Source: an uncultured Acidimicrobiaceae bacterium (GTDB taxonomy: Bacteria; Actinomycetota; Acidimicrobiia; Acidimicrobiales; RAAP-2). Taken from it: DNA of 64,000 nucleotides. This document shows positions 4,125-23,994 of the stretch, piece by piece (the stretch's first letter is position 1; each line of letters begins with the position of its first letter). The position numbers and the translations under genes are program-made. Under the pieces are notes generated by a model that did not search any database, was not told the origin of the DNA, and worked only from the letters and a program-made list of their open reading frames with translations. The stretch is from NCBI GenBank assembly GCA_937975915.1, contig CALJTY010000030.1, positions 144,413-208,412 of the forward strand, written 5' to 3'.

Positions 4125-6650
4125 CTAGAACTGCGAACGCATTGCTTTGGTGAATGCAATTCCAACGTGCATGCGCTCAATTTCCTGGTCGACAGTCTTT
4201 TGGCGACCAGCAAGTGCGTGCTCATTGTGGAATTTCTCAACTTCACGTGAGAATGCTTCATCAGTAACGTACGTCGATACTCCAACAGCGAGGCGCGCGT
4301 GTGCGCTCGAAGGGAAGCGGTCCATTGCTTCGTCCCAACGCTTTGCGATGACCTTCCACACTGCTGGACCTGAGACACGATTACGACTGTAGAAACCAAG
4401 CATCATTCCACCGTCTTGGTTACGGAATGTTGAGTAACACATTTCGGTGGCGCGAAGTAGCAATGCTTCATCAGTAAAGAATCCAAGTGCCATGCGGTAA
4501 TTGTTTTCATCCTGTGGAGTGGCAGCATTCTGACAACGCTTCCAGAACTCATCGAAGTCTGCAGCTTGACCTTGCTCTCCAATGACGCGAAGTACAGGGA
4601 TCAAAATGTCACCGTGAATGTTGCCGGCATCAAAACGCTTACGAGCTTCTGCAATCACCGCTGGGTTCTTGGCAACACTTCCCAGTGTTCCAATTGCGAG
4701 ACCACGGGCCTTGCCATCAAAGGTGTCTTCATTGGCCTTAGGGTCCCAACCGAATGCATCAAGAACAGGAGCGAAGATGTCATTAGCGAAAGCGGCAATC
4801 TTTGGAGTCTGCTCAGGAGTTAAAACGCGATTCAGCATTTCAATTGCTGCGGCCACAGTTTCTAAAGAAGCGACTTCTCTAAATGGTGCAGCGCTTCGTG
4901 CGAGCTCTTCAAAGCTGGCCCATGTGATCTGTCCAGCAAAGAGCGCTGCCCATGCATCGAGCAAGATGTTTGCGCGGTCAACTTTTTCAAGTTCACCGAA
5001 TCGAGCTGCGATGGCTGATGATTCTGCGGCGCCGTAGCGGGTACGAAATACTCCAGATGCACCAACATTTACGAGCACGGGTGCAGCATCACTGACCGTG
5101 ATTGGCGTATCGCTCAATAAGTTACGAGTAACAGTTTTTGAATCCAGTGACTTCGTGAGTACTGGCACTAACCACTTCTTTCCGATCTCACTAGAAGGCG
5201 ATGTAGGGGTAGCTACAAGACTTCCGTAAGCGAAAGGTTGCTGAGAGATCTGACCGTTTTCCAGTGTGACCATTGGGTGGCCACCCTGCAAAATGAAGGT
5301 GTTCATGATGTCTCGAACTGGCTTGCCAGATTCTTCTTCGAGCGCGTCCCATAGGTCGGTAGTTACGGTGTTCTTGTAACTGTGCTTCTTCAAGTAACGG
5401 CGAATTCCGTTTCGGTATGTCTCTTCACCGAGGAATTGCTGAAGCATTCGTAGAACTCCACCACCCTTTTCGTAGGTGAGAACATCGAACATTCCTTGTG
5501 TGTCGTCTGGCGAAATGACTTCGTATTCAATTGGTCGAGTCGAGTGAAGTCCGTCAACCTTCATTGCCATTTCACGGTCAATAACTGCGAACCAAGTCCA
5601 GATGTCCCATTCAGGTCGGAAGTCTTCCATTGCGAGTGTGGCGCAGAATGTGGCGAATGCTTCGTTGAGCCAAATTCCTTCCCACCATTCCATGGTTACA
5701 AGGTCACCAAACCACATGTGAGCAATTTCGTGAGCAACAACTTCAGCCACACGTTGCACAGCTGCGAGTCCGGCAACTTCTGGGTCAACGAGCAGTGCAG
5801 TTTCGCGGTATGTCACGAGACCTAAGTTCTCCATCGCACCAGCAGCAAAGTCGGGGATCGCAATCATGTCGAGTTTTTCGCCTGGGTAGGGAATGTCGAA
5901 GTATGAAGAGAAGAAACGAAGTGCGTGCGTACCAGCTTCCATGGCGAGGTCCGTTAGGTGGCCCTTTCCAAGTGGGTAGATCACTCGAAGTGGCACACCA
6001 TCAACATCAACTGCCTCAGTTGATTCGAAAGGTCCCACGCAGAATGCAACGAGATACGTTGACATGATCATGGTTGGTGAGTAAGCAACAGTCTTTTGAC
6101 CATTACCAAGATCAACGTTTGAAGTCTCAGGGTTATTTGAATACACCGCCAAGTGTGAAGGAACCGTGAGGTTCACCTGGTAGGTCGCCTTGAAAGATGG
6201 CTCGTCCCAGCAAGGGAAAGCTTGGCGAGCATAGGAGTGCTCAAACTGCGTAGTCGCAATTCGGTGCTCAGTGCCGCTGGCGTCGGTGTACTTTGAAAGG
6301 TAGAAACCTTGCAGGTGGTCGTTAAGAACTCCGGTAAAGGCAATCTCTAGAACGCCAGCGCCCGTTGGCAAAGCACTCTCGAAGCTAAAGGTTGCAGTCT
6401 CGTATTTGTCGTTAAGGGTCAAGCTCGTTGAGCGAAGCGACGTGGAGCCTGAGGTGATGGTTGCGTCACCCATCTCGAGCGCCTTGGCGTTCAACGTGAA
6501 GGAGGTATTTGACTCTTTTACGTCAATGTCGATCTCTACGCGGCCCGAAAAGGTGGCGGCGTCGAGGTCTGGAGTGATGAAAATTCGATAGGCCGATGGG
6601 ACAATCGAACGGTCGAGGCGGTATGGATTCTTTGCAGTGCTCATAGGCAT
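4125..6650 (-). CDS. pepN: Aminopeptidase N (M1 family zinc metallopeptidase)
   Basis: GAMEN exopeptidase motif and HEIAHMWFGDLVTMEWWEGIWLNEAFA (HExxH-x18-E). Length 841 aa. Confidence 0.95.
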   Translation of the reverse strand: MPMSTAKNPYRLDRSIVPSAYRIFITPDLDAATFSGRVEIDIDVKESNTSFTLNAKALEMGDATITSGSTSLRSTSLTLNDKYETATFSFESALPTGAGVLEIAFTGVLNDHLQGFYLSKYTDASGTEHRIATTQFEHSYARQAFPCWDEPSFKATYQVNLTVPSHLAVYSNNPETSNVDLGNGQKTVAYSPTMIMSTYLVAFCVGPFESTEAVDVDGVPLRVIYPLGKGHLTDLAMEAGTHALRFFSSYFDIPYPGEKLDMIAIPDFAAGAMENLGLVTYRETALLVDPEVAGLAAVQRVAEVVAHEIAHMWFGDLVTMEWWEGIWLNEAFATFCATLAMEDFRPEWDIWTWFAVIDREMAMKVDGLHSTRPIEYEVISPDDTQGMFDVLTYEKGGGVLRMLQQFLGEETYRNGIRRYLKKHSYKNTVTTDLWDALEEESGKPVRDIMNTFILQGGHPMVTLENGQISQQPFAYGSLVATPTSPSSEIGKKWLVPVLTKSLDSKTVTRNLLSDTPITVSDAAPVLVNVGASGVFRTRYGAAESSAIAARFGELEKVDRANILLDAWAALFAGQITWASFEELARSAAPFREVASLETVAAAIEMLNRVLTPEQTPKIAAFANDIFAPVLDAFGWDPKANEDTFDGKARGLAIGTLGSVAKNPAVIAEARKRFDAGNIHGDILIPVLRVIGEQGQAADFDEFWKRCQNAATPQDENNYRMALGFFTDEALLLRATEMCYSTFRNQDGGMMLGFYSRNRVSGPAVWKVIAKRWDEAMDRFPSSAHARLAVGVSTYVTDEAFSREVEKFHNEHALAGRQKTVDQEIERMHVGIAFTKAMRSQF

Positions 6651-6683
6651 CCACCCTAGGGGAAAATCTTCTACGCTCGCTAA

Positions 6684-7721
6684 GTGACAAATTCTCAGAC
6701 GCCAGTTTCCCTTCGTAAAAAGCCCGGCCCAAATCGCCTTGCGGTTACTGGTATTGGCAACGCGATGCTCGACATTATTTCTCGCGACTCAGATGAGGTG
6801 TACGCAGATCTTGGTTTCATCAAAGCCTCGATGAGCCTCGTTGACGTTGACAGACTCGAAACGATTTATAACGCAATGGGACCAACAACACAGATGAGCG
6901 GTGGCTCAGTTGCAAACTCAATCTCTGGTGTTGCCAATCTTGGTGGAACGTGTGGCTTCATTGGAAAAGTCGCCAACGATGAATTCGGCGAACGATTCCA
7001 GCACGACTTGAAATCACTTGGTGCAGAACTCGATGTTGCAATTGCCGCACCTGATGAAGGAGCAACTGGTCGTTGTCACGTTTTTATTACTGATGATGCG
7101 CAGCGCACTATGGCCACGTACTTAGGTGCTGGTAATCAACTTCGTCCAGATGACATTCGCGAAGACCTCATTTCACGTTCAGAAATCACGTACGTTGAGG
7201 GCTACTTGTTTGACCTTCCGCCAGCGAAGGAAGCAATCAAAAAAGTTGTCAACTTCGCACACGAACATGACTCAATGGTTGCCCTTTCTCTTTCTGACAG
7301 TTTTTGCGTAGACCGCCACCGTCGAGACTTCCTTGAGCTCATCACCAACGATGTTGACCTACTGCTTTGCAACAAGGATGAAATACTTTCGCTCTTTCAA
7401 GTTGAGACACTGCCTGAGGCTTATGACCTTATTGATGAACTCGGAATCCTTGCGGTGGTCACCCGTGGACCAGAGGGGGCAGACGTTCTTTCATTCTCTG
7501 AAGTGGTCAATGTTCCAGCAGCTGAAGTTGAGCATGTGGTTGATCAAAATGGTGCGGGCGACATGTTCGCTGCAGGATTTCTTTACGGCATGGCCCTTGG
7601 CTGTGACCCTGTTGAAGCGGCGCAACTCGGATCACTCTGCGCTGGTGAAGTTATTAAGCACCTCGGAGCTCGACCAGAAGTTGATCTGGAAGAACTCGCT
7701 ATCGAAGCAGGACTGCTCTAG
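6684..7721 (+). CDS. PfkB-family carbohydrate/nucleoside kinase (adenosine-kinase-like)
   Basis: C-terminal DQNGAGDMFAAGFLYG (PfkB signature 2) and an N-terminal GG region. GTG start. Confidence 0.8.
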   Translation: MTNSQTPVSLRKKPGPNRLAVTGIGNAMLDIISRDSDEVYADLGFIKASMSLVDVDRLETIYNAMGPTTQMSGGSVANSISGVANLGGTCGFIGKVANDEFGERFQHDLKSLGAELDVAIAAPDEGATGRCHVFITDDAQRTMATYLGAGNQLRPDDIREDLISRSEITYVEGYLFDLPPAKEAIKKVVNFAHEHDSMVALSLSDSFCVDRHRRDFLELITNDVDLLLCNKDEILSLFQVETLPEAYDLIDELGILAVVTRGPEGADVLSFSEVVNVPAAEVEHVVDQNGAGDMFAAGFLYGMALGCDPVEAAQLGSLCAGEVIKHLGARPEVDLEELAIEAGLL

Positions 7722-13669: not shown

Positions 13670-14536
13670 TTGTTGACGCTTACGGCCGTGAGCAGCATGT
13701 TCGCTGCTTCACTGGTTCTTTCTACGTCTCTCAACGCGGAGGCGTCTACTTCGCACGCTCCAGTTCACATGCCAAACCTCATCGGCACCTCGCGCGCCAA
13801 TGTCTATGCAGTCATGTCGTCAAAGGGTCTCTATTTCACCACCAGCGGCCCGGGATCATCGAATGGAACATGGGTGACGGTTGCTGCACAGAGCCCAGCT
13901 CCTGGCGTTGTGATCGCGTGGCACAGTCAGGCGAAAATTGTGACTTCAATGAAGCCATTTGTCGGTCCCAGAAGGGTCCCAAAGCTCATTGGTCTTTCAA
14001 AAGCCGCTGTGTATAAGGCAATGCACAATGCCGGTCTCTTCTTTGACACCACTGGGCCGGGTGCCTTCAGTGGAACCTGGACCAGGGCCGTTGGGCAAAA
14101 TCCAGCTGCTGGAACGGTTGTCAAATTCGAGTCCGTTGTACTTGTACACGTGGGACTTCCAGTTGTCCCAAAGAAGCCAACTACTCCTTCAACAACGACA
14201 ACTACAACAACAACTCCAGGCGAAACCACAACCACCATCACGGGTGAAACAACAACTGTTCCAGTGACGACAACAACGCTTAAGCCAGCTCCGAAGCGTT
14301 ACGTCATTGGAATTGCCACGTGGTACTCGTATGTTCCTGGACGCTGTGCATCACCAACCTTGCCGTTTGGAACTCACGTTCGTGTGCAGAACATAGCGAC
14401 AGGAAAAACTATTGCGTGCGTTGTTACTGACCGTGAAAATGCATCGTACCCACGCGTTATTGACTTGTCTATGACACAGTTCGCTCAACTGTCACCACTG
14501 TCAAAGGGCGTAATTCGTGTCAGAGTGTCCTGGTGA
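13670..14536 (+). CDS. Exported protein: signal peptide, two PASTA-like domains, Thr-rich linker, RlpA-like double-psi beta-barrel
   Basis: Signal-like N-terminus ending LNAEA. Two PASTA-like repeats. C-terminal GIATWYSY...ASPTLPFGTHVRVQNIATGKTIACVVTDRENASYPRVIDLS matches the RlpA/DPBB pattern. The TTG start is uncertain. Confidence 0.7.
   Translation: MLTLTAVSSMFAASLVLSTSLNAEASTSHAPVHMPNLIGTSRANVYAVMSSKGLYFTTSGPGSSNGTWVTVAAQSPAPGVVIAWHSQAKIVTSMKPFVGPRRVPKLIGLSKAAVYKAMHNAGLFFDTTGPGAFSGTWTRAVGQNPAAGTVVKFESVVLVHVGLPVVPKKPTTPSTTTTTTTTPGETTTTITGETTTVPVTTTTLKPAPKRYVIGIATWYSYVPGRCASPTLPFGTHVRVQNIATGKTIACVVTDRENASYPRVIDLSMTQFAQLSPLSKGVIRVRVSW
13763..14155 (+). repeat. Tandem intragenic duplication encoding two PASTA-like modules
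   Basis: VHMPNLIGTSRANVYAVMSSKGLYFTTSGPGSSNGTWVTVAAQSPAPGVVI aligns with RRVPKLIGLSKAAVYKAMHNAGLFFDTTGPGAFSGTWTRAVGQNPAAGTVV. Confidence 0.7.
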
Positions 14537-16098: not shown

Positions 16099-16200
16099 TT
16101 ATTTACCGGCGGCGCGACGCTGGAAGCGTGTTCGCTTCAGCATCTTCTTGTGCTTCTTCTTACGCATGCGCTTACGGCGCTTCTTAATTAATGATCCCAT
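16099..16200 (-). CDS. 30S ribosomal protein bS22 (33 aa)
   Basis: Hand translation of the minus strand gives MGSLIKKRRKRMRKKKHKKMLKRTRFQRRAAGK. This matches the actinobacterial bS22 pattern MGSVIKKRRKRM.KKKH.KLL..TR.QRR. It is below the ORF-track cutoff. Confidence 0.7.
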   Translation of the reverse strand: MGSLIKKRRKRMRKKKHKKMLKRTRFQRRAAGK

Positions 16201-16249: not shown

Positions 16250-16504
16250 TTATTGAGGTTTAACTGTGTCGTTACTTCGCTCGATACTGAGGGCTTGGCG
16301 TGGACATCCGCGAACTGCATAACGAGCTGACTGGAGCAGCCCAGAATTGCTCAAGGGGACGGGTTCGCTTACAACAATGGGATAACCCCACTCGTCCACG
16401 TCTACAAGTTCAGGCGCTAATTCGTGGCAGTGTCCAAATCCGTCACAAAGAATCGGATTTACCTTCAAAACAAATGATCCAGAACGCCTGCGCACTACTC
16501 CCAT
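16250..16504 (-). CDS. Small single-cluster ferredoxin (3Fe-4S/4Fe-4S type)
   Basis: 84 aa with C-D-G-F-G-H-C ... G-C-P, i.e. Cys-x2-X-x2-Cys...Cys-Pro. Phe sits at the second ligand position, which suggests a 3Fe-4S cluster. Overlaps the upstream gene by 10 nt. Confidence 0.75.
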   Translation of the reverse strand: MGVVRRRSGSFVLKVNPILCDGFGHCHELAPELVDVDEWGYPIVVSEPVPLSNSGLLQSARYAVRGCPRQALSIERSNDTVKPQ

Positions 16505-17769
16505 ATAAGTTCGTCCTCATGCTCGATCGTTGGAATAGTAATTGTGTGCTTCGGGCGCTGAGTCCCGGTGCATGGACGTCCAACAATGTGTTGTGAAATG
16601 TCATCTTCAAAAACAACGAGCGCAGATCTCACCAGTCGAATTACACCGTCTGGGTGGCGACAGGCACCGCGACCTTCGATTGAATCGCAGCGGCTTTGTA
16701 GGCGCTCGTATGCGGCCCTCGGATCTTTTGATGAATGCGTAATGCTCATGAGATCTTCAGCAAGTGCAGGAAGACCAAAGGCACATGGTCCGCACTGGCG
16801 AGCACTTTCATTGGCCATCCACCTCACAATTCGAAGTGTCTCATAGACACCACACGCTTCACGTGGAAGCACCGCCATCACACCAGCGCCAACACCCGCC
16901 CCAGGCACGCTCAAGTATTCGTTGGCGTAGGGGGTATCAATGTGTTTTCCGTGCAACCATGTTCCACCGAAGCCACCAAGGAGAAGCGCTTGAGGTGCCA
17001 TGTCGGCGTGACCCGCAGCCAAGATGTCTCTGATTGGCGTGCCAAGAGAAACTTCAAGCACGGTCGATCTCTCAACGGCACCAGAAAGAGACACAAGTGT
17101 CGACCCCGGGCTTTTCTCAGTTCCGAGTTTTCTAAACCACTCAGCACCAAATCGTGCGATCAGTGCAACGTTGGCGCACGTCTCAGCATTATCAACAAGA
17201 GCGGGGTTGCGACCAACACGCAAAATACTTGGACGTTCCGGGCGGTACTGGGGGAGTGATTCATTATCGTTAAGCCAGTGCACAAGAGCTGATTCTTCAC
17301 CTGCCACGTAGCGCCAAGGTGGAGTGTGAAGTTCGATTGTCGCTCCTCGCAGGCTTCGACGCTCTAATTCGTGGATGGCACGATTTAAATGATTAACAAC
17401 AGTTGGATTGTCTCTAGCGACGCAGACGAGAATCCGCTTGGCCCCAATAAGACCCGCCAGGACTTGGGCTCCTTCAAGAATCAAATGAGGGTTCGCACCC
17501 GCGAGGGCGAATTCTTTGTGCGCAGCCGGCTCACCTTCCATGAGGTTCACCACTACAGATTTATTGTTACCTCGCTGCAAGCGCAGGAGATCAACTTTTC
17601 TAAAAGTTGGAAAAGCAGCGCCACCGCGACCAGTTAGCCCCGAGTTTTCGAGCTCGTGCATGACATTAAAAGGTGTTTCAGCAATGAATACTTCTTCATG
17701 TCGCTCGAGCGAAAGAGGGCGCCCTTCAGAGCCGTGAAGTACTCGAGGCAGTGAGCCAGCACTAATCAT
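16495..17769 (-). CDS. NuoF-like (complex I 51-kDa subunit family) FMN/NAD(H)-binding iron-sulfur flavoprotein, stand-alone
   Basis: GLTGRGGAAFPTFRK, NLMEGEPAAHK, YVAGEESALV and NPALVDNAETCANV. SLBB-like GAEWFRKLGTEKSPGSTLVSLSG. The cluster region is ESARQCGPCAFG ... GRGACRHPDG. Confidence 0.8.
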   Translation of the reverse strand: MISAGSLPRVLHGSEGRPLSLERHEEVFIAETPFNVMHELENSGLTGRGGAAFPTFRKVDLLRLQRGNNKSVVVNLMEGEPAAHKEFALAGANPHLILEGAQVLAGLIGAKRILVCVARDNPTVVNHLNRAIHELERRSLRGATIELHTPPWRYVAGEESALVHWLNDNESLPQYRPERPSILRVGRNPALVDNAETCANVALIARFGAEWFRKLGTEKSPGSTLVSLSGAVERSTVLEVSLGTPIRDILAAGHADMAPQALLLGGFGGTWLHGKHIDTPYANEYLSVPGAGVGAGVMAVLPREACGVYETLRIVRWMANESARQCGPCAFGLPALAEDLMSITHSSKDPRAAYERLQSRCDSIEGRGACRHPDGVIRLVRSALVVFEDDISQHIVGRPCTGTQRPKHTITIPTIEHEDELIWE

Positions 17770-18413
17770 TAGCGGCGGCGAGGTTTCACGGTTGGTGCTG
17801 AGCGAGGAGGCGAATCAATCCGCTGTGGAATGGTCTTTGCGCGAGGTAGTGGTGAAAGTGCAGTTCGACCGGCTGCACGCTCGGGACGTGCGAAGTAGCG
17901 CCACAAAGCAACAATAAGGACTAGTCCCGCACATCCTGCGACCACTAACAGCCCGGCTTCATCATGGGTATCGGTACCTGCCATGTAAGCGTGGACAATT
18001 GCTGAGGTGTAGGCCAGCCAGCTGAACCAGTGAATGAATCGCCACGACTCATTTTTAATTCGAACCTTTAGCAAACTTGAAATCCACACACTGAGCAACA
18101 AGTCAAAGCCGACTGCACCGATTGCAATTGGAATTGTTTTATAAGCAGACGTCATGGGAACAAACGCGGAAATTATTCCGGTTGAAACGTAACTATCTAC
18201 GACGGTAGTGAGAATGTGCATGAAGAGAAACAACATTGCGACCATTGAAACTGAACGATGAAGTTCGTTGAGTTCGAAGCGACCGACAAAAGTTCCACCA
18301 ATGCGATTTGACACAAGGGCTCCGAGTACTACAACAAGTGTGAGCAGTAGCAGTGCAACAATGCCCGTTGCTCTAGTGGTGTACCAAAGATAAGTATTAG
18401 TAAACGCAATCAT
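17769..18413 (-). CDS. Ferric-reductase/MsrQ-like transmembrane di-haem protein (no fused FAD/NAD domain)
   Basis: 5-6 TM helices. Two bis-His pairs lie in separate helices: HRSVSMVAMLFLFMH and HWFSWLAYTSAIVH. The start is set at ATG 18413 (ATGA overlap with the ApbE stop) rather than the ORF-track start at 18521. Confidence 0.7.
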   Translation of the reverse strand: MIAFTNTYLWYTTRATGIVALLLLTLVVVLGALVSNRIGGTFVGRFELNELHRSVSMVAMLFLFMHILTTVVDSYVSTGIISAFVPMTSAYKTIPIAIGAVGFDLLLSVWISSLLKVRIKNESWRFIHWFSWLAYTSAIVHAYMAGTDTHDEAGLLVVAGCAGLVLIVALWRYFARPERAAGRTALSPLPRAKTIPQRIDSPPRSAPTVKPRRR

Positions 18414-19345
18414 TCGCCATCCTCGGGCCAACCACCAATGAACTCCACGGCTCCATTGTTGCGCACTAAACGTGCCGACCACCCTGATTGTGCGATGTGA
18501 TACCCAGCGTCTTCTCCCCATAACAGCGCCGCGGTGGCAAAGGCGTTAGCTGTCACACAGTCTGGGGCACTTACGGACGCTGTTGAATAGGGTCCTCGGG
18601 CGTAACTTCCAGTTCGTGGGTCAATGATGTGGTTGGCCGTCTCGCCATTTACCTTCCAGCTTCTTGCACGAAGTGAAGAAGTGGCGATCCCACCACTGCT
18701 CATCGAAACGCTGGGTACTGTCGAGTTGATCGAGAGTGAGTCAGAGATTCCAATGTTCCAAGGATTACGTGGATCAATGCCACGAAGCGCAACATCGCCT
18801 CCTATTTCAACTGCAACCCCACCAAACTTCATTACATCATTCGCTACTAGATCAGCAGTGAGTGCTTTTGCACTTGCGCCAAAATCAATCATGCAATTGT
18901 TCAGCGAAATCTTGTGGCTGCTCTTATCAAAATTGATTGCACTAATTCCAGGTGACGGAACTGATTGGTCGTGATCTATGTATGTTTGACCTACAAGTTC
19001 ATCGAAATCACGGTTGTAACCAAGCTGAAGTAGCGCACTGAGAACTGTCGGGTCACAAAGCCCGCCGGTTATCTCACTCGAGCGAATTGCTGCATCTAAA
19101 GCAACTTCAAAGGTTGGTGAGACTTCGAACGCTTGACCGTTTGAATTATTTAAACGTTGAATTTCAGATTCATCTTTGAAACGGTTGCACGCGCGGTCAA
19201 TTTCACCAATCCAGTACCACAAGCGTTCGTTTGCAAATTCGAAGTGCTCGGCACTCTCAGTTGCAAGCGAGCCAGTAAGTCCCCAAATTTCAAACTTTGC
19301 GGCTGTTAGTGACACGTCACGTGCCCAGACGGAGTCGAGTAGCAA
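18410..19345 (-). CDS. apbE: FAD:protein FMN transferase (ApbE family)
   Basis: N-terminal FEIWGLTGSLA aligns with the ApbE MGT region, and C-terminal DCVTANAFATAALLWG with the DA..TA motif. TTG start at 19345 (alternative GTG at 19315). No signal peptide seen. Confidence 0.8.
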   Translation of the reverse strand: MLLDSVWARDVSLTAAKFEIWGLTGSLATESAEHFEFANERLWYWIGEIDRACNRFKDESEIQRLNNSNGQAFEVSPTFEVALDAAIRSSEITGGLCDPTVLSALLQLGYNRDFDELVGQTYIDHDQSVPSPGISAINFDKSSHKISLNNCMIDFGASAKALTADLVANDVMKFGGVAVEIGGDVALRGIDPRNPWNIGISDSLSINSTVPSVSMSSGGIATSSLRARSWKVNGETANHIIDPRTGSYARGPYSTASVSAPDCVTANAFATAALLWGEDAGYHIAQSGWSARLVRNNGAVEFIGGWPEDGE

Positions 19346-19677
19346 ACCGTGGTGGTTGTGACGGGCCTCTTGGGCGGTGTGTAAACAGTTGTTGGAGTTG
19401 GCGCAACAGTCGTAGGTGTTTGTGGCTGGGTCGTCGGTGTGCCAGGACGTGGACGTGTGGTTGGTGTCAAGGGGTTTGAAACTGTTGTTGTAGGAATTGG
19501 TGTGACGCCAGTAGGTGTTGTAACTACTGGGAAAGTTGTTACGGGCTTTGCCTTTGCTGAGGCGTAGCCAACGAAGAGCACTGAAAGTGTGCTGGCAGCA
19601 AGGAACACTGCCTGGGTGAGTCGTCGTACCCGTATGAACTGACGGTCACGCTGCTGGGGAGTCCTTGCTGTTCTCAT
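19306..19677 (-). CDS. Membrane-anchored Pro/Thr-rich protein with C-terminal Cys/His tail
   Basis: Basic N-terminus, one TM helix (AVFLAASTLSVLFVGYA), about 75 aa of P/T-rich spacer, and the terminal sequence VCYSTPSGHVTCH. It overlaps the ApbE ORF by 40 nt and may instead be the N-terminal part of ApbE. Confidence 0.5.
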   Translation of the reverse strand: MRTARTPQQRDRQFIRVRRLTQAVFLAASTLSVLFVGYASAKAKPVTTFPVVTTPTGVTPIPTTTVSNPLTPTTRPRPGTPTTQPQTPTTVAPTPTTVYTPPKRPVTTTTVCYSTPSGHVTCH

Positions 19678-19746: not shown

Positions 19747-21093
19747 TCAGACGCCTTTTATTACAGGAAAATTGATGGTGAATCTGGCTCCACCGAGTTC
19801 TGGGTCTTTGTCAACGACCACCACACCATTGAATTCACGCACGACCTGGGCAACGATTGAAAGGCCAAGTCCTGAACCCGGAAGTGAGCGAGATGATGGT
19901 GCTCTCCAAAAGCGGTCAAAAACAAAAGGTCGATCTTCTTCGTTAACACCCGGACCGCTGTCGCTCACGGTTATTGAACCATTGGAAGTCTTTACGAGGA
20001 TTCGACCATTTTCGGGGGTGAACTTGACTGCGTTCGTCAGCAAATTGCTGACAGCGCGTTCGAGTCGGTCACGACGACCAGAAATTGAAGAAGCTTCGAG
20101 TTCTGAATCAATGGTGATGTGCTTAATTCGTGCGTAGGTTTTTGCAGTGTCAACTGCTTCTTGGACGCAGTCTTCGAGGTGAAGTACGACTACTTCGCCT
20201 TCACTTCGCTCACCTCTTGAAAGCTCGCCTAGATCAGTTACGAGAACTGACAACTCATCCACTTGAGTGATGATGTCGGCTTTCAACTGTTGTAAGTCTT
20301 CGTCAGATAGCTCAGAGGCTCTGGACATAACTTGGGCATTGGTGCGAAGCGAAGTGAGGGGAGTTCGTAGCTCGTGACTTGCATCCAGGACCAGCTGTCT
20401 CTGGAGGAGTTGGCTATCTTCCACTGAGTTCAACAACTTATTGAATACGCTTCTCAAGCGCCCGAGTTCGTCATCACTGCCTTCTGCAATTCTGTAGCTG
20501 AGATCCTGTGTACTCGCCACAGTTTCAATTTCATTCGTTACCGATTCAAGTGGTCGAAGTGCGGTGCGGGCAATGAAAGTACCAAGTATGAAGGCGAGGA
20601 AAACTCCGCCGAGTGCTACCAACAACAACGTTCCAATCAGGTGACGCAGCTGGTTCGTTTCTCCTGAAATGTTGATGACAAAAAGTTGCGCTGAAGTTGA
20701 AGCAACTTTGCAGATTTCGTCACCACAGTTGACTTGTGTGCCGCTGGGGATTGGAACAATAAGTTCTCTAAAGGGTGATTCGTTGATCTCAACTGTTCTC
20801 AGCTGTTCTCCAAGTTGGCCTCTGGCGACTTTCAGAATTACTGAGTCAATCGGCACCGTGGACTTTGGTGTGGTGGTGCCATTGGCGAGGATTAATTCGG
20901 TGAATGCACCACTTAACTTAAATTCTTCGCCAGATGCATGAGGCCGGGCTACGAGCGCAGCGTTATGTAGTGAAGTATCAACTGAGGCGATCAGTGAATT
21001 CTTTGCGGTCAAGAACGATGCGAAGCAGGCGAGTAGAACTGCAACAGTGGCAACACCAACGGTTGAGAAAATGACTCGATTACGAAATGTCAC
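19747..21093 (-). CDS. Sensor histidine kinase (2 TM, extracytoplasmic sensor, HAMP, HisKA, HATPase_c)
   Basis: H-box SHELRTPLTSL, N-box NLLTNAVKFT, G1 DSGPGV, G2 GSGLGLSI. The extracytoplasmic segment of about 120 aa contains CGDEIC. Confidence 0.9.
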   Translation of the reverse strand: MTFRNRVIFSTVGVATVAVLLACFASFLTAKNSLIASVDTSLHNAALVARPHASGEEFKLSGAFTELILANGTTTPKSTVPIDSVILKVARGQLGEQLRTVEINESPFRELIVPIPSGTQVNCGDEICKVASTSAQLFVINISGETNQLRHLIGTLLLVALGGVFLAFILGTFIARTALRPLESVTNEIETVASTQDLSYRIAEGSDDELGRLRSVFNKLLNSVEDSQLLQRQLVLDASHELRTPLTSLRTNAQVMSRASELSDEDLQQLKADIITQVDELSVLVTDLGELSRGERSEGEVVVLHLEDCVQEAVDTAKTYARIKHITIDSELEASSISGRRDRLERAVSNLLTNAVKFTPENGRILVKTSNGSITVSDSGPGVNEEDRPFVFDRFWRAPSSRSLPGSGLGLSIVAQVVREFNGVVVVDKDPELGGARFTINFPVIKGV

Positions 21094-21791
21094 GAGGAGC
21101 GAAGTGCGTATCCAACGCCACGAACAGTTTGGATGAGACGCTTTGTTTCGTCGTCACCTTCAAGTTTGCGGCGTAAATAGCCAATGTAGACAGCAAGAGA
21201 GTTTGTTCCCGAATCAAAGTTGTAGCCCCAAACGAGGTCGAGTATTTGTTCGCGGGTGAGGACTTGACGAGGGTGTTGCAAAAAGAGTTCTAGAAGGTCA
21301 AATTCAATTTTGGTCAAATCAACTGCACGATCACCACGAAACACTTCACGCGTCTGTGGATTAAGCGTGAGGTCTTCGAAGCGCATGACGTCTGCGAGCC
21401 CATCGCCGGCTCCTTGGCGGCGAAGTAGTGCTCGGAGGCGTGCGAGTAGTTCAGCCAAGTCAAATGGCTTTACGAGGTAATCATCAGCTCCTGCGTCAAG
21501 TCCTTCAACGCGGTCATTCACGGCATCTCGAGCGGTGAGCATCAAAATTGGTGTCACGTCTCCGGCTTTTCGAATGCGTCTACACACTTCAAGCCCATCG
21601 ATGTCAGGAAGCTGCAGATCCAAAATGATTGCGTTTGGTGCACGGAGCTGAATGGCTTTGAGTGCGCTCAGTCCATCTTCAAAGAGTTCAACCTCGTAAT
21701 TTTCCATACGAAGCGCGCGCCCCAGGGCAGTGCGAATAGCACCATCATCGTCAATAATTGCGATGTAGTTGTTGGGACTTGCTGCGCTCAT
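21090..21791 (-). CDS. OmpR-family response regulator
   Basis: Receiver domain (IIDDDGAIR, ILDLQLPDIDG, LMLTARD, KPF) and a winged-helix C-terminus (RGVGYALR). Overlaps the kinase start (GTGA). Confidence 0.9.
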   Translation of the reverse strand: MSAASPNNYIAIIDDDGAIRTALGRALRMENYEVELFEDGLSALKAIQLRAPNAIILDLQLPDIDGLEVCRRIRKAGDVTPILMLTARDAVNDRVEGLDAGADDYLVKPFDLAELLARLRALLRRQGAGDGLADVMRFEDLTLNPQTREVFRGDRAVDLTKIEFDLLELFLQHPRQVLTREQILDLVWGYNFDSGTNSLAVYIGYLRRKLEGDDETKRLIQTVRGVGYALRSS

Positions 21792-21977: not shown

Positions 21978-22868
21978 TTATTTTGCAAATCGACCAAGTA
22001 AAGCCGCCAGTTTCAGGGGCTGGTCCCCCTGGACTGAGTGTCCGGCTTCTTGGATATGAACAATCTCAGCGTGGGGAACACGACGCATCAGTTCACTTTC
22101 ATCATCATCATCCACAACTGAGCCAGCGGCCATTCCTCTTATGAGTGTGACTGGCATTGTGAGTTCGCCGAGCTTGTCCCATAGGTTTCCTACTTCTGGA
22201 GCTTGCAGTTCTGACTTTGGATGTTGCTGATGGCGCCACACCCATGAGCCGTCACTTCGCTGCAACGCATTGTGAAGAATGCCTCGACGCAGCGCCGAAA
22301 CTTTTCGAGTCGGGTTGTGCTCGATCGTTCGAGCAAGCAAATCGTCGAAATCATCAAACGACGTTGGACCGTTCACGAATGCAGTGATGTGTTTTGCTTT
22401 TTCAGCATTGACTCCGGGCGTTATGTCAATGAGTGTCAACGAACTAACTAGCTCGGGATGTGCTGATGCAATCAGGATTGAAGTGAGGCCACCCATGGAC
22501 ATGCCGACGAGGGGCGTTGGTTTCATTACGAGTTGAGCAAGCGCGTTCGAAACATCACTTGCGTGCGCACGGATCGCCGACGAACCGTAGGGGCTGGCGT
22601 CAGAGTGTCCATGATTAGGAAGATCTAGGGCAATGAGCGGTTGCTGGAGTGCGAGAGCAACAGTGTCGTAGGTGTGAGCGTTCTGTGCTCCGCCGTGGAG
22701 CAACACCATCGAGGGCACTTCTTCTTGCCACTGCAGTCCGCTTAGTTTGCGTCCAGCGTCTACTTCGACAAAGAAGCGTCGCACCGATGGGACCGTGACA
22801 TCGAGGTCCCATTCTGCAAGGTTTTCCTGAAAGAAGGAAAACTCGTCATAGTTAATTTCACCCACCAC
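21978..22868 (-). CDS. Alpha/beta hydrolase
   Basis: HG oxyanion motif (VLLHGG), nucleophile elbow GMSMGG, and C-terminal AGH. The ORF-track start at 23078 would overlap divergent glmU. GTG 22868 or a later GTG is more plausible, so the start is uncertain. Confidence 0.75.
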   Translation of the reverse strand: MVGEINYDEFSFFQENLAEWDLDVTVPSVRRFFVEVDAGRKLSGLQWQEEVPSMVLLHGGAQNAHTYDTVALALQQPLIALDLPNHGHSDASPYGSSAIRAHASDVSNALAQLVMKPTPLVGMSMGGLTSILIASAHPELVSSLTLIDITPGVNAEKAKHITAFVNGPTSFDDFDDLLARTIEHNPTRKVSALRRGILHNALQRSDGSWVWRHQQHPKSELQAPEVGNLWDKLGELTMPVTLIRGMAAGSVVDDDDESELMRRVPHAEIVHIQEAGHSVQGDQPLKLAALLGRFAK

Positions 22869-22881
22869 CGAATCGTAGAAG

Positions 22882-23994
22882 ATGAATGCTAGAGATGGTG
22901 GAGTGATTCGACCAACTTGTGTAGTGGTGCTCGCCGCCGGTGAGGGAACCAGGATGAGGTCCTCGAGACCTAAGCCCTTGCACCACATTTGCGGTCGACC
23001 AATGGTTCTGTACGTTCTAGATGCCGCCGCCCAGGAAAACGTCATGGCGACAGTGGTCGTAGTTGGACACGGGGCCACGTGGGTTGAGAAGTCAGTAAGT
23101 GAGCGTGCACGTGAAGATGTACGAATAACTTTCGTTGAGCAGCATGAACAACTAGGAACTGGTCACGCTGTGAGTGTGGCACTGCCAAGCATTAGCGATG
23201 CAATGAATGGTGCCGATGGTGACGTGCTCATCATGCCAGGAGATACGCCACTGCTTCGACAAAGCACCATTGCAAGACTGCTCGAGCAACACCGTGAAAA
23301 AGATGCCGCGATAACAGTCCTCACTGCAATAGTTGACGATCCTTCTGGGTACGGCCGGATTGTCCACGCCAAAAATGGCTCGATCTCTCGGATTGTTGAA
23401 GAGAAAGACGCCAGCGTTGAAGAGCGTGCCATCACTGAAATAAATACTTCAATCATGGTGGTGAAGGAAAGTCTCCTCGGTCCGGCGCTTCGACGTGTTG
23501 ATCGGCAAAATGCTCAGAACGAGTACTACCTAACAGATCTAATTTCTCTGCTGTTTGAAACTGGCCACGTCACGCAGTCGTTTGTGCTGAGTGACGCCAC
23601 TGAAGCCCAGGGAGTAAACGACCGCATGCAGCTGGCAACTGCAGAAGTTGCCATGCGAGAGCGAATCAATGAGCGATGGATGAAACGTGGGGTAACGATG
23701 TGGGACCCCGCCCAGACGTACATTGACGCCGACGTTGAACTTGCACAAGAAGTGTCACTGCTACCGGGAACTGTCCTAAAGGGCAAGTGCGTTATTGCCA
23801 GGGGCGCACAAATAGGCCCACACGCGAGTCTGACCAATGTGATGGTGGGTGAAAATGCCCACGTTGGAACCGTCGATGCGCAGGATGCAAAAATTGGCGC
23901 TGACGCCACAGTGAGTTCGTATGTAGTTCTTGGCTCTGGTGCAGAAATTCTTTCGGGCGAGTTTGTGGCTCCCTTTCAGCACCGGAACCGCTAG
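22882..23994 (+). CDS. glmU: GlmU-like UDP-N-acetylglucosamine pyrophosphorylase with C-terminally truncated left-handed beta-helix
   Basis: LAAGEGTRMRS and the full uridyltransferase domain are present. The LbH region stops at ...GSGAEILSGEFVAPFQHRNR, which aligns to about residue 350 of E. coli GlmU as I remember it. Length is 370 aa against roughly 456-495. Confidence 0.8.
   Translation: MNARDGGVIRPTCVVVLAAGEGTRMRSSRPKPLHHICGRPMVLYVLDAAAQENVMATVVVVGHGATWVEKSVSERAREDVRITFVEQHEQLGTGHAVSVALPSISDAMNGADGDVLIMPGDTPLLRQSTIARLLEQHREKDAAITVLTAIVDDPSGYGRIVHAKNGSISRIVEEKDASVEERAITEINTSIMVVKESLLGPALRRVDRQNAQNEYYLTDLISLLFETGHVTQSFVLSDATEAQGVNDRMQLATAEVAMRERINERWMKRGVTMWDPAQTYIDADVELAQEVSLLPGTVLKGKCVIARGAQIGPHASLTNVMVGENAHVGTVDAQDAKIGADATVSSYVVLGSGAEILSGEFVAPFQHRNR

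Follow-up and report, generated by a model that had tools for sequence, protein, structure and literature searches.

The way in which electrons leave Gram-positive cells is an open question for most Actinomycetota. The closest described systems are the "MsrQ-like" flavinylation systems of Méheust et al. (2021, eLife, PMC8238504), a group of 1797 mostly actinobacterial gene clusters, 31 of which encode a NuoF-like protein, with reduced nicotinamide adenine dinucleotide or its phosphate (NAD(P)H) proposed as the electron donor; iron reduction has been proposed for some MsrQ-like clusters in the same work. These classes are bioinformatic and without biochemical characterisation (PMC8238504; Huang et al., 2024, mSystems, PMC11334425), and the modelling of MsrQ-like proteins by Huang et al. 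(PMC11334425) did not include the module form considered here. We analysed a five-gene module in a 64,000-nucleotide (nt) stretch of contig CALJTY010000030.1 (assembly GCA_937975915.1) of an uncultured Acidimicrobiaceae bacterium; this whole stretch is referred to below as the window. The module occupies positions 16250-19677 of the minus strand and encodes a ferredoxin, a stand-alone NuoF-like protein, a Ferric_reduct membrane protein (FRD), an ApbE-family protein and a small Pro/Thr-rich protein (Table 1). In our estimate there is an even chance that these proteins form a self-contained electron-export unit, in which electrons would pass from NAD(P)H through the NuoF-like protein, the ferredoxin and a di-haem FRD to the flavinylated small protein.

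The module shares with the MsrQ-like systems, which are found mainly in Actinobacteria, a PF01794 di-haem protein encoded beside apbE, and with their 31-cluster subset a NuoF-like protein (PF10589) replacing the fused NAD-binding domain; the proposed flow from NAD(P)H to an extracytosolic flavinylated acceptor is also the same. Such systems were recognised by a PF01794 gene in a cluster with apbE, FMN_bind, DUF2271 or DUF3570 (PMC8238504), and the window has adjacent PF01794 and PF02424 genes. However, the published clusters typically include an FMN_bind gene, whereas no protein of the present cluster matches FMN_bind in Pfam or NCBIfam, and DUF2271 and DUF3570 genes are likewise absent from it. 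Its putative substrate is domainless, with the motif at the extreme C-terminus, and a separate ferredoxin belongs to the set. Moreover, the published definition demands a signal peptide or lipidation site on ApbE or its substrate (PMC8238504), and ApbE of the window, as judged by hydropathy, has no signal peptide. Because of this demand, the present module form would have been filtered from the survey of Méheust et al. unless another gene qualified and, as ApbE genes without signal peptides were discarded, the survey probably missed the whole class. In the accessible part of its supplementary tables, a search for the 31 NuoF-like clusters yielded one match, an unrelated Desulfitobacterium complex. 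The electron-export reading itself had been put forward in an earlier note on this DNA; it is reasonable, as the domains and the co-conservation agree with it, but it is not new in kind (PMC8238504). What is added here is the small protein as a probable flavin carrier and the recognition that ApbE lacks a signal peptide throughout the family.

Proteins of the NOX/FRE group (SpNOX, CsNOX5) have the same H-x13-H and H-x12-H pairs, holding two stacked haems, and likewise draw on a cytoplasmic pyridine nucleotide donor. However, NOX proteins have six helices and a fused FAD/NADPH domain (FAD, flavin adenine dinucleotide), whereas FRD has five predicted helices and no fusion; here the dehydrogenase would be the NuoF-like protein together with the ferredoxin, of unrelated fold and using flavin mononucleotide (FMN) and iron-sulfur (Fe-S) clusters, not FAD. 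The MsrPQ system of Escherichia coli with Fre, a two-component NOX-like system (Juillan-Binard et al., 2017, as cited in PMC8238504), resembles the module in that a Ferric_reduct membrane cytochrome is fed by a separate soluble cytoplasmic reductase. It differs in three respects: no MsrP-like molybdoenzyme is encoded in or near the present cluster, the donor here is the NuoF-like protein with the ferredoxin and not a flavin reductase, and ApbE and the motif-bearing peptide have no MsrPQ counterpart. In its proposed function the module resembles a NOX or MsrQ/Fre system whose parts are divided among separate proteins, and it departs from NOX, NuoF and the MsrQ-like systems in several of their defining features.

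A surface-tethered carrier whose FMN is attached by ApbE and which takes electrons outwards in a Gram-positive cell is known from extracellular electron transfer in Listeria (PplA, FmnB, Ndh2, EetAB). In contrast to the small protein, PplA is lipid-anchored and contains FMN_bind domains that are folded; FmnB, the ApbE homologue, acts outside the cytosol, with flavin trafficked by a dedicated energy-coupling factor (ECF) transporter (PMC9973259), and the electrons of Listeria come from the quinone pool, not from a haem conduit. Conversely, the ApbE that modifies the soluble fumarate reductase of Klebsiella pneumoniae has no signal peptide and works in the cytoplasm (reviewed in PMC12052999); the substrate there is a cytoplasmic FMN_bind enzyme, whereas the small protein is predicted to be exported or anchored with its C-terminus outside.

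Gene set and conservation

Table 1. Features of the module and the adjacent regulatory genes (positions in the window; aa, amino acids).
Feature	Position	Strand	Basis
Ferredoxin, 84 aa, three Cys	16250..16504	-	Fer4_15
NuoF-like, stand-alone NAD(P)H-binding FMN/Fe-S flavoprotein (predicted), 424 aa	16495..17769	-	Complex1_51K + NADH_4Fe-4S
Fe-S motif ESARQCGPC, NuoF-like residues 321-329	16783..16809	-	alignment to 9bov_B ESCGKCTYC
FRD, Ferric_reduct (MsrQ/NOX-like) membrane protein, 214 aa, 5 predicted helices	17769..18413	-	PF01794
FRD, first bis-His pair H52-x13-H66	18216..18260	-	invariant
FRD, second bis-His pair H128-x12-H141	17991..18032	-	invariant
ApbE-family FAD:protein FMN transferase (predicted), 301 aa from GTG 19315 (311 aa from TTG 19345)	18410..19315	-	PF02424
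Small protein, 123 aa, candidate ApbE substrate/flavin carrier	19306..19677	-	position, architecture, C-terminal motif
Small protein, N-terminal region, residues 1-42: RTPQQRDRQFIRVRRLTQ, hydrophobic segment, ASA-K	19552..19677	-	charge/hydropathy
Small protein, C-terminal motif C112-Y-S-T-P-S117-G-H-V-T-C122-H	19309..19344	-	conserved in orthologues
HAMP sensor histidine kinase	19747..21093	-	HAMP, HisKA, HATPase_c matches
OmpR-family response regulator	21090..21791	-	Response_reg, Trans_reg_C; 4-nt overlap with kinase gene

The five minus-strand open reading frames (ORFs) lie exactly where the earlier note had placed them, and the ATGA, TAATG and 10-nt junctions that it claimed can all be read from the sequence. 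The stop codon of apbE and the start of frd share gaATGAtt (18410-18413, a 4-nt overlap), with GAGGA 9 nt upstream; TAATG at 17767-17771 joins the frd stop to the start of the NuoF-like gene, and the latter overlaps the ferredoxin gene by 10 nt (16495-16504). The 40-nt overlap proposed for the small-protein and apbE genes (19306/19345) holds only with TTG 19345 as the start; with GTG 19315 it is 10 nt, and in an 89%-identical orthologue the ApbE start was called at the equivalent of this GTG, giving the 301-aa product. Profile matches were judged by Pfam's own cut-offs, with NCBIfam also searched for the cluster proteins. All domain assignments of the earlier note were reproduced with Pfam scores exceeding the family cut-offs, and its statement that the operon contains no MsrP, FMN_bind or quinone-linked gene was borne out. 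Promoter and terminator scans gave counts at or below the shuffle expectation and were uninformative.

One genome per species was scanned; 357 species had a relative, and the best 80 loci (60-96% identity) were examined. Homologues of the NuoF-like protein number thousands, the closest being those of uncultured freshwater, bog and soil Acidimicrobiales. Where the contig was long enough, the best 80 loci had the order glmU/hydrolase/response regulator/histidine kinase/small gene/apbE/frd/nuoF-like/fdx/ispE/rsmA. All five genes were present in each of the 60 Acidimicrobiales loci whose contigs have room for them, and the small gene lay between the kinase gene and apbE in 64 of 64, so the five genes are co-conserved, as the reading of the earlier note requires, and the module recurs across Actinomycetota. 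The same note called the block an insertion. This is correct relative to other actinobacterial orders, but not within Acidimicrobiales: as the block is fixed in position there and its base composition is ordinary, with no anomaly, it is not a recent insertion.

The order small-apbE-frd-nuoF-like-fdx was also found on plasmids of Mycobacterium sp. JS623, Rhodococcus, Gordonia, Arthrobacter and Cnuibacter, where ApbE again has no signal peptide and the regulator/kinase pair is usually present. Some of these plasmid modules sit among metal-homeostasis genes, such as those for VIT family proteins, DUF2231 proteins, multicopper oxidases, CDF proteins and P-type ATPases, and this proximity to VIT-family and metal-resistance genes hints at metal redox chemistry. 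A metagenome scan seeded with the plasmid proteins yielded 80 further loci; most keep the complete order, and nearly all that are long enough keep apbE-frd-nuoF-like-fdx.

Putative donor pair and membrane conduit

In Pfam, the NuoF-like protein matches Complex1_51K (105 bits, cut-off 31, E = 3.6e-30) and NADH_4Fe-4S (54 bits, cut-off 23.5, E = 1.5e-14). Its scores against the NuoF equivalogs are far below their cut-offs (TIGR01959, 193 bits, cut-off 558; NF008436, 135 bits, cut-off 749), and from the former value we conclude that it is not NuoF itself. The closest solved relatives are NuoF, Nqo1, HydB and HoxF (E = 1e-47 to 1e-40). Over about 380 aligned residues it shares with NuoF/Nqo1 and HydB/HoxF the GRGGAAFP, EGEP and GEESAL motifs, the SLBB region and the C-terminal Fe-S domain, and the FMN/NADH motifs GRGGAAFP, MEGEP and AGEESAL are kept among its orthologues. 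It differs from these proteins in standing alone, in having a small ferredoxin as its partner, and in the Ala that takes the place of the first cluster Cys. As had been noted before, there is no NuoE/NuoG partner, the adjoining genes being those of FRD and the ferredoxin.

The same note had pointed to the loss of the first Cys in ESARQCGPC. The motif is as described, and the change runs through the actinobacterial NuoF-like family. With Ala323 at the first canonical position, the four-Cys N3 motif C-x2-C-x2-C ... C is absent, and C326, C329 and C370 (16660-16662) are left as would-be ligands. All four residues are invariant in a 23-sequence alignment and conserved at the 95% level in 83 orthologues; NuoF-like homologues of Mycobacterium, Rhodococcus, Streptomyces, Arthrobacter and Gordonia have the same Ala. 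Since every actinobacterial member examined carries it, the replacement is a family trait and not a peculiarity of the window. The ferredoxin (Fer4_15, 25.5 bits, cut-off 22.4) has its Cys in the arrangement C20-x2-F-x2-C26 ... C67-P68, and these Cys and their flanking residues are conserved in 77 orthologues. In having exactly three conserved Cys it resembles single-cluster ferredoxins of the [3Fe-4S] type.

A fusion of the two proteins, with the ferredoxin at the C-terminus, is encoded in two loci of Streptomyces and one of Nonomuraea. These loci (L087, positions 5893-7344, L093 and L094) belong to two plasmid records of Streptomyces and to one record of Nonomuraea gerenzanensis that is likewise catalogued as a plasmid; frd lies directly upstream in all three, with no apbE within about 5 kilobases. 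On plasmids of Rhodococcus pyridinivorans and R. opacus (L089, 5824-7304; L095, 4833-6212), the NuoF-like gene adjoins Rieske ring-hydroxylating oxygenase genes, and L089 also has a ferredoxin gene. This suggests that the NuoF-like family also acts as a reductase component of oxygenase systems. Taken together, the motifs, the fused genes and the Rieske-adjoining pairs indicate that the NuoF-like protein and the ferredoxin would make up a pair of NAD(P)H:ferredoxin reductase and ferredoxin of general use, which in the module would have been recruited to deliver electrons to FRD. The earlier proposal of a cytoplasmic donor pair thus gains from the Streptomyces and Nonomuraea fusions and from the similar pair beside the Rieske genes of Rhodococcus. 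The presence of the NuoF-like gene, with or without the ferredoxin gene, beside oxygenase genes on two Rhodococcus plasmids would also be in line with a different view, that the pair works for a cytoplasmic enzyme and lies next to frd by chance. We consider this very improbable, as start and stop codons overlap in the window, the order frd-nuoF-like-fdx is strict in about 150 loci from distant lineages, and the window cluster has no oxygenase gene.

The membrane protein to be fed, FRD, matches PF01794 with 34.6 bits (cut-off 28). Both bis-His pairs named in the earlier note, H52/H66 and H128/H141, are invariant in sets of 37 and 78 orthologues and in the distant plasmid homologues. The protein ends about 40 residues after its last helix, with no Pfam match to a FAD or NAD domain. 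FRD has five predicted helices, not six: an AlphaFold2 (AF2) model has helices at residues 7-35, 42-78, 94-118, 121-144 and 153-174 (mean predicted local distance difference test score, pLDDT, 62), and hydropathy likewise gives five. The equivalent of the first transmembrane helix of NOX (TM1) therefore appears to be missing. From the charges of its loops, FRD is predicted to have its N-terminus outside and its strongly basic C-terminus inside.

A fold search with the FRD model ranked SpNOX, STEAP1 and DUOX1 first with non-significant matches (E > 0.1), and because of these E-values the matches serve as weak support at most. Together with the NOX-like spacing of the His pairs (x13, x12), the SpNOX and DUOX1 matches are what could speak for a bacterial analogue of NADPH oxidase, in which O2 would be reduced at the outer haem or flavin to extracellular superoxide or peroxide. 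Such a function seems to us decidedly improbable: besides the non-significance of the fold matches, the sequences do not tell oxygen from other acceptors, and ApbE and a peptide with a flavin motif belong to no known NOX.

In Acidimicrobiales, the cytoplasmic tail of FRD contains an invariant RPxRAAGRTALSPL (residues ~172-189; window 17769-17900, minus strand) that is absent from the FRD homologues of Mycobacterium, Rhodococcus, Arthrobacter, Cnuibacter and Gordonia. Possibly the ferredoxin or the NuoF-like protein docks there in this lineage. A role of this tail as a general flavinylation site was ruled out, as it occurs in Acidimicrobiales only and is missing in the plasmid homologues.

The small protein and ApbE as a candidate flavinylation pair

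The small protein, which has no Pfam or NCBIfam family match, had been listed in the earlier note as a membrane-anchored peptide and given no part in the electron path. The comparative data point instead to the role of a flavinylated acceptor. Although its sequence is variable, its layout is common to all lineages examined: the N-terminus is rich in Arg and leads into one weakly hydrophobic segment with much Gly, Ala and Thr; a low-complexity linker of Ser, Thr, Pro and Gly, 40 to more than 100 residues long, connects this segment to a short conserved C-terminus.

The N-terminal part would be either a signal anchor or a signal peptide of Tat (twin-arginine translocation) or Sec type. An Arg-Arg pair lies within 14 residues of the hydrophobic segment in 64/68 Acidimicrobiales ORFs, and 15/24 ORFs from other lineages also have such a pair. 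The 25 residues before the segment contain on average 6.8 Lys+Arg versus 1.1 Asp+Glu. Maximal KD17 hydropathy of the segment is about 1.8-1.9, compared with 2.6-2.75 for helices of the histidine kinase and FRD from the same loci, and the segment is often followed by an A-x-A site (ASA-K in the window). Such traits are those of twin-arginine signals, although the match to the consensus is loose. Because of the basic N-terminal region and the few charges of the linker, the small protein is predicted to be oriented with its N-terminus in and its C-terminus out.

The C-terminal motif takes the form C-[YT]-[ST]-[TS]-P-S-G-x-[TV]-[TVI]-C-x in 66 of 68 orthologues, S and G being invariant; the tail of another lineage, C-H-S-T-P-S-H-P-C, keeps S-T-P-S, not G. 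The two Cys of the motif point to a loop closed by a disulfide, a bond that would be made on the outer side of the membrane. Small ORFs ending at the apbE start in the metagenome set have a different C-terminus: 15 of 24 finish in [ST]G[GAS][ST]-COOH, typically TSGGS, TSGAS or TTGAS, and 19 of 24 in the looser [ST]x[GA][ST], compared with 0.6% and 1.3%, respectively, of all ORF segments in the same loci. Small proteins of the plasmid copies end in degenerate forms (SHGS, SAGS, TKGS, TRAS, TAAS). The [ST]G[GAS][ST] ends correspond to the published ApbE motif D-x-x-[S/T]-G-A-[S/T], whose last residue receives FMN. Among ten loci without apbE upstream of frd, six keep such an ORF, with an SSGGS, TSGGS or SSGAS end, directly before frd; we therefore assign the small protein to the conduit, with apbE located at another place in some cases.

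Other variants of the small protein were observed. In loci L117, L130 and L138, the ORF ending 27-41 nt before the start of the apbE domain is of a third type, with an internal S-G-V-T and then a conserved tail VTTTTxTVNGKTVVTxVRH..., so that the motif is not at the extreme C-terminus. In Streptomyces sp. NBC_00648, frd is preceded by a gene (L087, 4210-4920) whose 236-aa product contains a hydrophobic segment, some ten His-rich repeats of the NPHGTA type and a terminal EGASAS; genes for DUF1996 and Lipoprotein_15 repeat proteins follow further upstream of frd. The 236-aa His-rich protein may be a metal-binding variant of the small protein.

ApbE is a clear family member (PF02424, 140 bits, cut-off 25.6, E = 1.3e-40). 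Its NHIIDPRTG aligns with SHIIDPTTG of the Vibrio cholerae ApbE 6nxi, including the catalytic His; the HIIDPxTG motif is conserved in 75 orthologues, and FAD-binding and catalytic motifs are kept. The 120 orthologues listed are 296-319 aa long, nearly all 296-304 aa, and begin at the catalytic domain. Judged by hydropathy, neither ApbE of the window nor its orthologues have a hydrophobic leader or lipobox, and the plasmid and metagenome versions from other actinobacterial lineages have none either. This feature, which the earlier note had missed, appears to be new for a whole family, and because of it simple extracytoplasmic flavinylation cannot be assumed. Fusion of the small protein to ApbE by frameshift or readthrough was considered and rejected, as the frame relation is inconsistent (different frames in the window and in Arthrobacter, the same frame with a stop between in locus L003) and the small protein has a conserved C-terminus of its own.

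There are two ways in which ApbE could be cytoplasmic and its substrate nevertheless exported: flavinylation before export, or co-export of ApbE. We prefer the former because FAD is cytoplasmic. In the latter, folded ApbE would ride on the twin-arginine signal of the small protein and flavinylate this protein or another substrate outside. Partner proteins with no signal of their own can be carried along by the Tat system, and ApbE, itself without a signal peptide, is always translationally coupled to a protein with an Arg-Arg N-terminus. Nevertheless, this course of events is improbable in our view. The mature small protein is of low complexity, with no obvious domain for holding ApbE, six loci have a small protein without adjacent apbE, and FAD would still have to be supplied outside; in Listeria, extracytosolic flavin trafficking has a dedicated transporter (PMC9973259).

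The small protein is probably a substrate of ApbE, and this role appears new. Flavinylation in an unstructured C-terminal extension has been described for FMN_red proteins of Lactococcus; for ApbE substrates without a folded domain, no description was found in the literature. In the window, the candidate flavinylation residue is S117 or else T121, both within the probable disulfide loop. A competing view retains the same conduit and leaves the small protein of this lineage unflavinylated, with ApbE serving a target elsewhere or acting as a FAD pyrophosphatase; in that case the tail with its two Cys would provide a disulfide or bind metal, or the small protein would be a kinase accessory, and Fe(III) or another acceptor would take electrons straight from the outer haem, as in ferric reductases. 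Several facts are in line with it. First, the window tail lacks the canonical [ST]GA[ST]. Second, the sensor domain of the adjacent kinase also has a conserved Cys pair. Third, the Streptomyces and Nonomuraea loci have frd and the fused NuoF-like::ferredoxin gene with no apbE. Finally, some plasmid copies adjoin genes for a VIT-family iron/manganese transporter and metal resistance, and assimilatory iron reduction was proposed by Méheust et al. for some MsrQ-like systems (PMC8238504). However, in all 64 Acidimicrobiales loci apbE adjoins and overlaps the small gene, relatives of the small protein carry a C-terminal ApbE motif far above chance, the catalytic motifs of ApbE are intact, and the other cluster proteins have no flavinylation motif. 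We regard this competing view as rather unlikely. With respect to the last point, a search for [ST]G[AS][ST] in ORFs of at least 100 aa between 16250 and 21800 was negative, so that a canonical site elsewhere in the cluster was rejected.

Proposed electron route, regulators and neighbouring genes

The route proposed for the electron-export unit is as follows. NAD(P)H would be oxidised at the FMN of the NuoF-like protein, whose domains are present and whose substrate is assumed from them. Electrons would then move through its three-Cys Fe-S cluster to the three-Cys ferredoxin, a step backed by the gene fusions, and the ferredoxin would reduce the cytoplasm-side haem of the five-helix FRD. The two conserved His pairs would bind the haems that take the electrons across the membrane. 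At the outer face, the acceptor would be the small protein, carrying FMN attached by ApbE to a Ser/Thr of its C-terminal motif on a long flexible linker, and the flavinylated protein would pass the electrons on to an extracellular acceptor. Attachment of FMN presumably takes place in the cytoplasm, where FAD is available, the modified peptide being exported afterwards; this is the least certain step. We infer the cofactors, the direction of electron flow, the flavinylation of the small protein and its route of export from sequence comparisons.

Generalising, we tentatively suggest, as a possibility clearly less likely than not, that the small proteins represent an unrecognised class of ApbE substrates: domainless peptides flavinylated in the cytoplasm by an ApbE without a signal peptide and exported, probably by Tat, whose flavin, tethered or released, would carry electrons from the outer haem of the split NOX-like conduit through the actinobacterial cell wall. 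Only three parts of them would be functional: one for export or anchoring, a long flexible tether rich in Ser, Thr and Pro, and a flavinylation motif that lies at the C-terminus or close to it.

A number of observations weigh against the proposed route to the exterior. The small protein of the window does not have the canonical motif, its invariant S-G being followed by H-V-T; only about 45% of Acidimicrobiales orthologues have Thr at G+2, where the canonical motif is modified, and the window has Val there, with Thr one position later. As the tail departs from the canonical motif in this way, flavinylation in the window lineage would need a non-canonical site. The Arg-Arg region matches the Tat consensus S/T-R-R-x-F-L-K loosely. 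By the positive-inside rule the C-terminus of the small protein would be outside, whereas ApbE is predicted to be inside, and a precedent for flavinylation before export was not found in the literature, nor was any experimental work on this gene set. Confidence in the FRD model is low, and the fold matches obtained with it, as given above, are non-significant. Finally, no recurrent partner or acceptor was found among 123 flanking ORFs of chromosomal metagenome loci, in which MFS transporters (9), Pirin (3) and Usp (3) were the only repeats.

If the proposed route is true, it would be a complete and compact path from NAD(P)H to the exterior made of parts that were not known to cooperate, and a minimal natural "flavin tag" substrate would be added to ApbE biology. 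It would also suggest that covalent flavin can reach the outside without FAD export; flavinylation followed by export would be the first route of its kind and would make a supply of FAD outside the cell unnecessary. Hundreds of species have the module, among them abundant uncultured Acidimicrobiales of lakes, bogs and thawing permafrost, as well as on plasmids of soil actinomycetes.

The genes for the response regulator and the histidine kinase lie directly upstream of the module on the same strand. The former is co-conserved with the module, and the latter adjoins it in Acidimicrobiales and in many other loci. The extracytoplasmic domain of the kinase has a C-x4-C (NCGDEIC in the window, residues ~122-127) conserved in 65 orthologues, which could be a redox or metal sensing site. 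This two-component system probably controls the module, and its dedication to it suggests induction by an envelope or redox signal.

Several other genes surround the module. Between the ferredoxin gene and ispE there is a 33-aa ORF (16099-16200, minus strand), whose orthologue in locus L003 matches PF08213 (COX24_C); we take it to resemble the small basic actinobacterial ribosomal protein bS22. At 13670-14536 (plus strand), a 288-aa protein is encoded that has two PASTA domains, a linker rich in Thr and Pro and, at the C-terminus, a DPBB_1 domain (lytic transglycosylase/RlpA-like), and its gene is syntenic with the module in Acidimicrobiales. On the other side, the ORF of a 366-aa alpha/beta hydrolase (21978-23078, minus strand) runs into the start of glmU (22882-23994, plus strand); as its orthologues were called at 295 aa, translation probably begins near 22865, which would make the apparent overlap a product of ORF extension.

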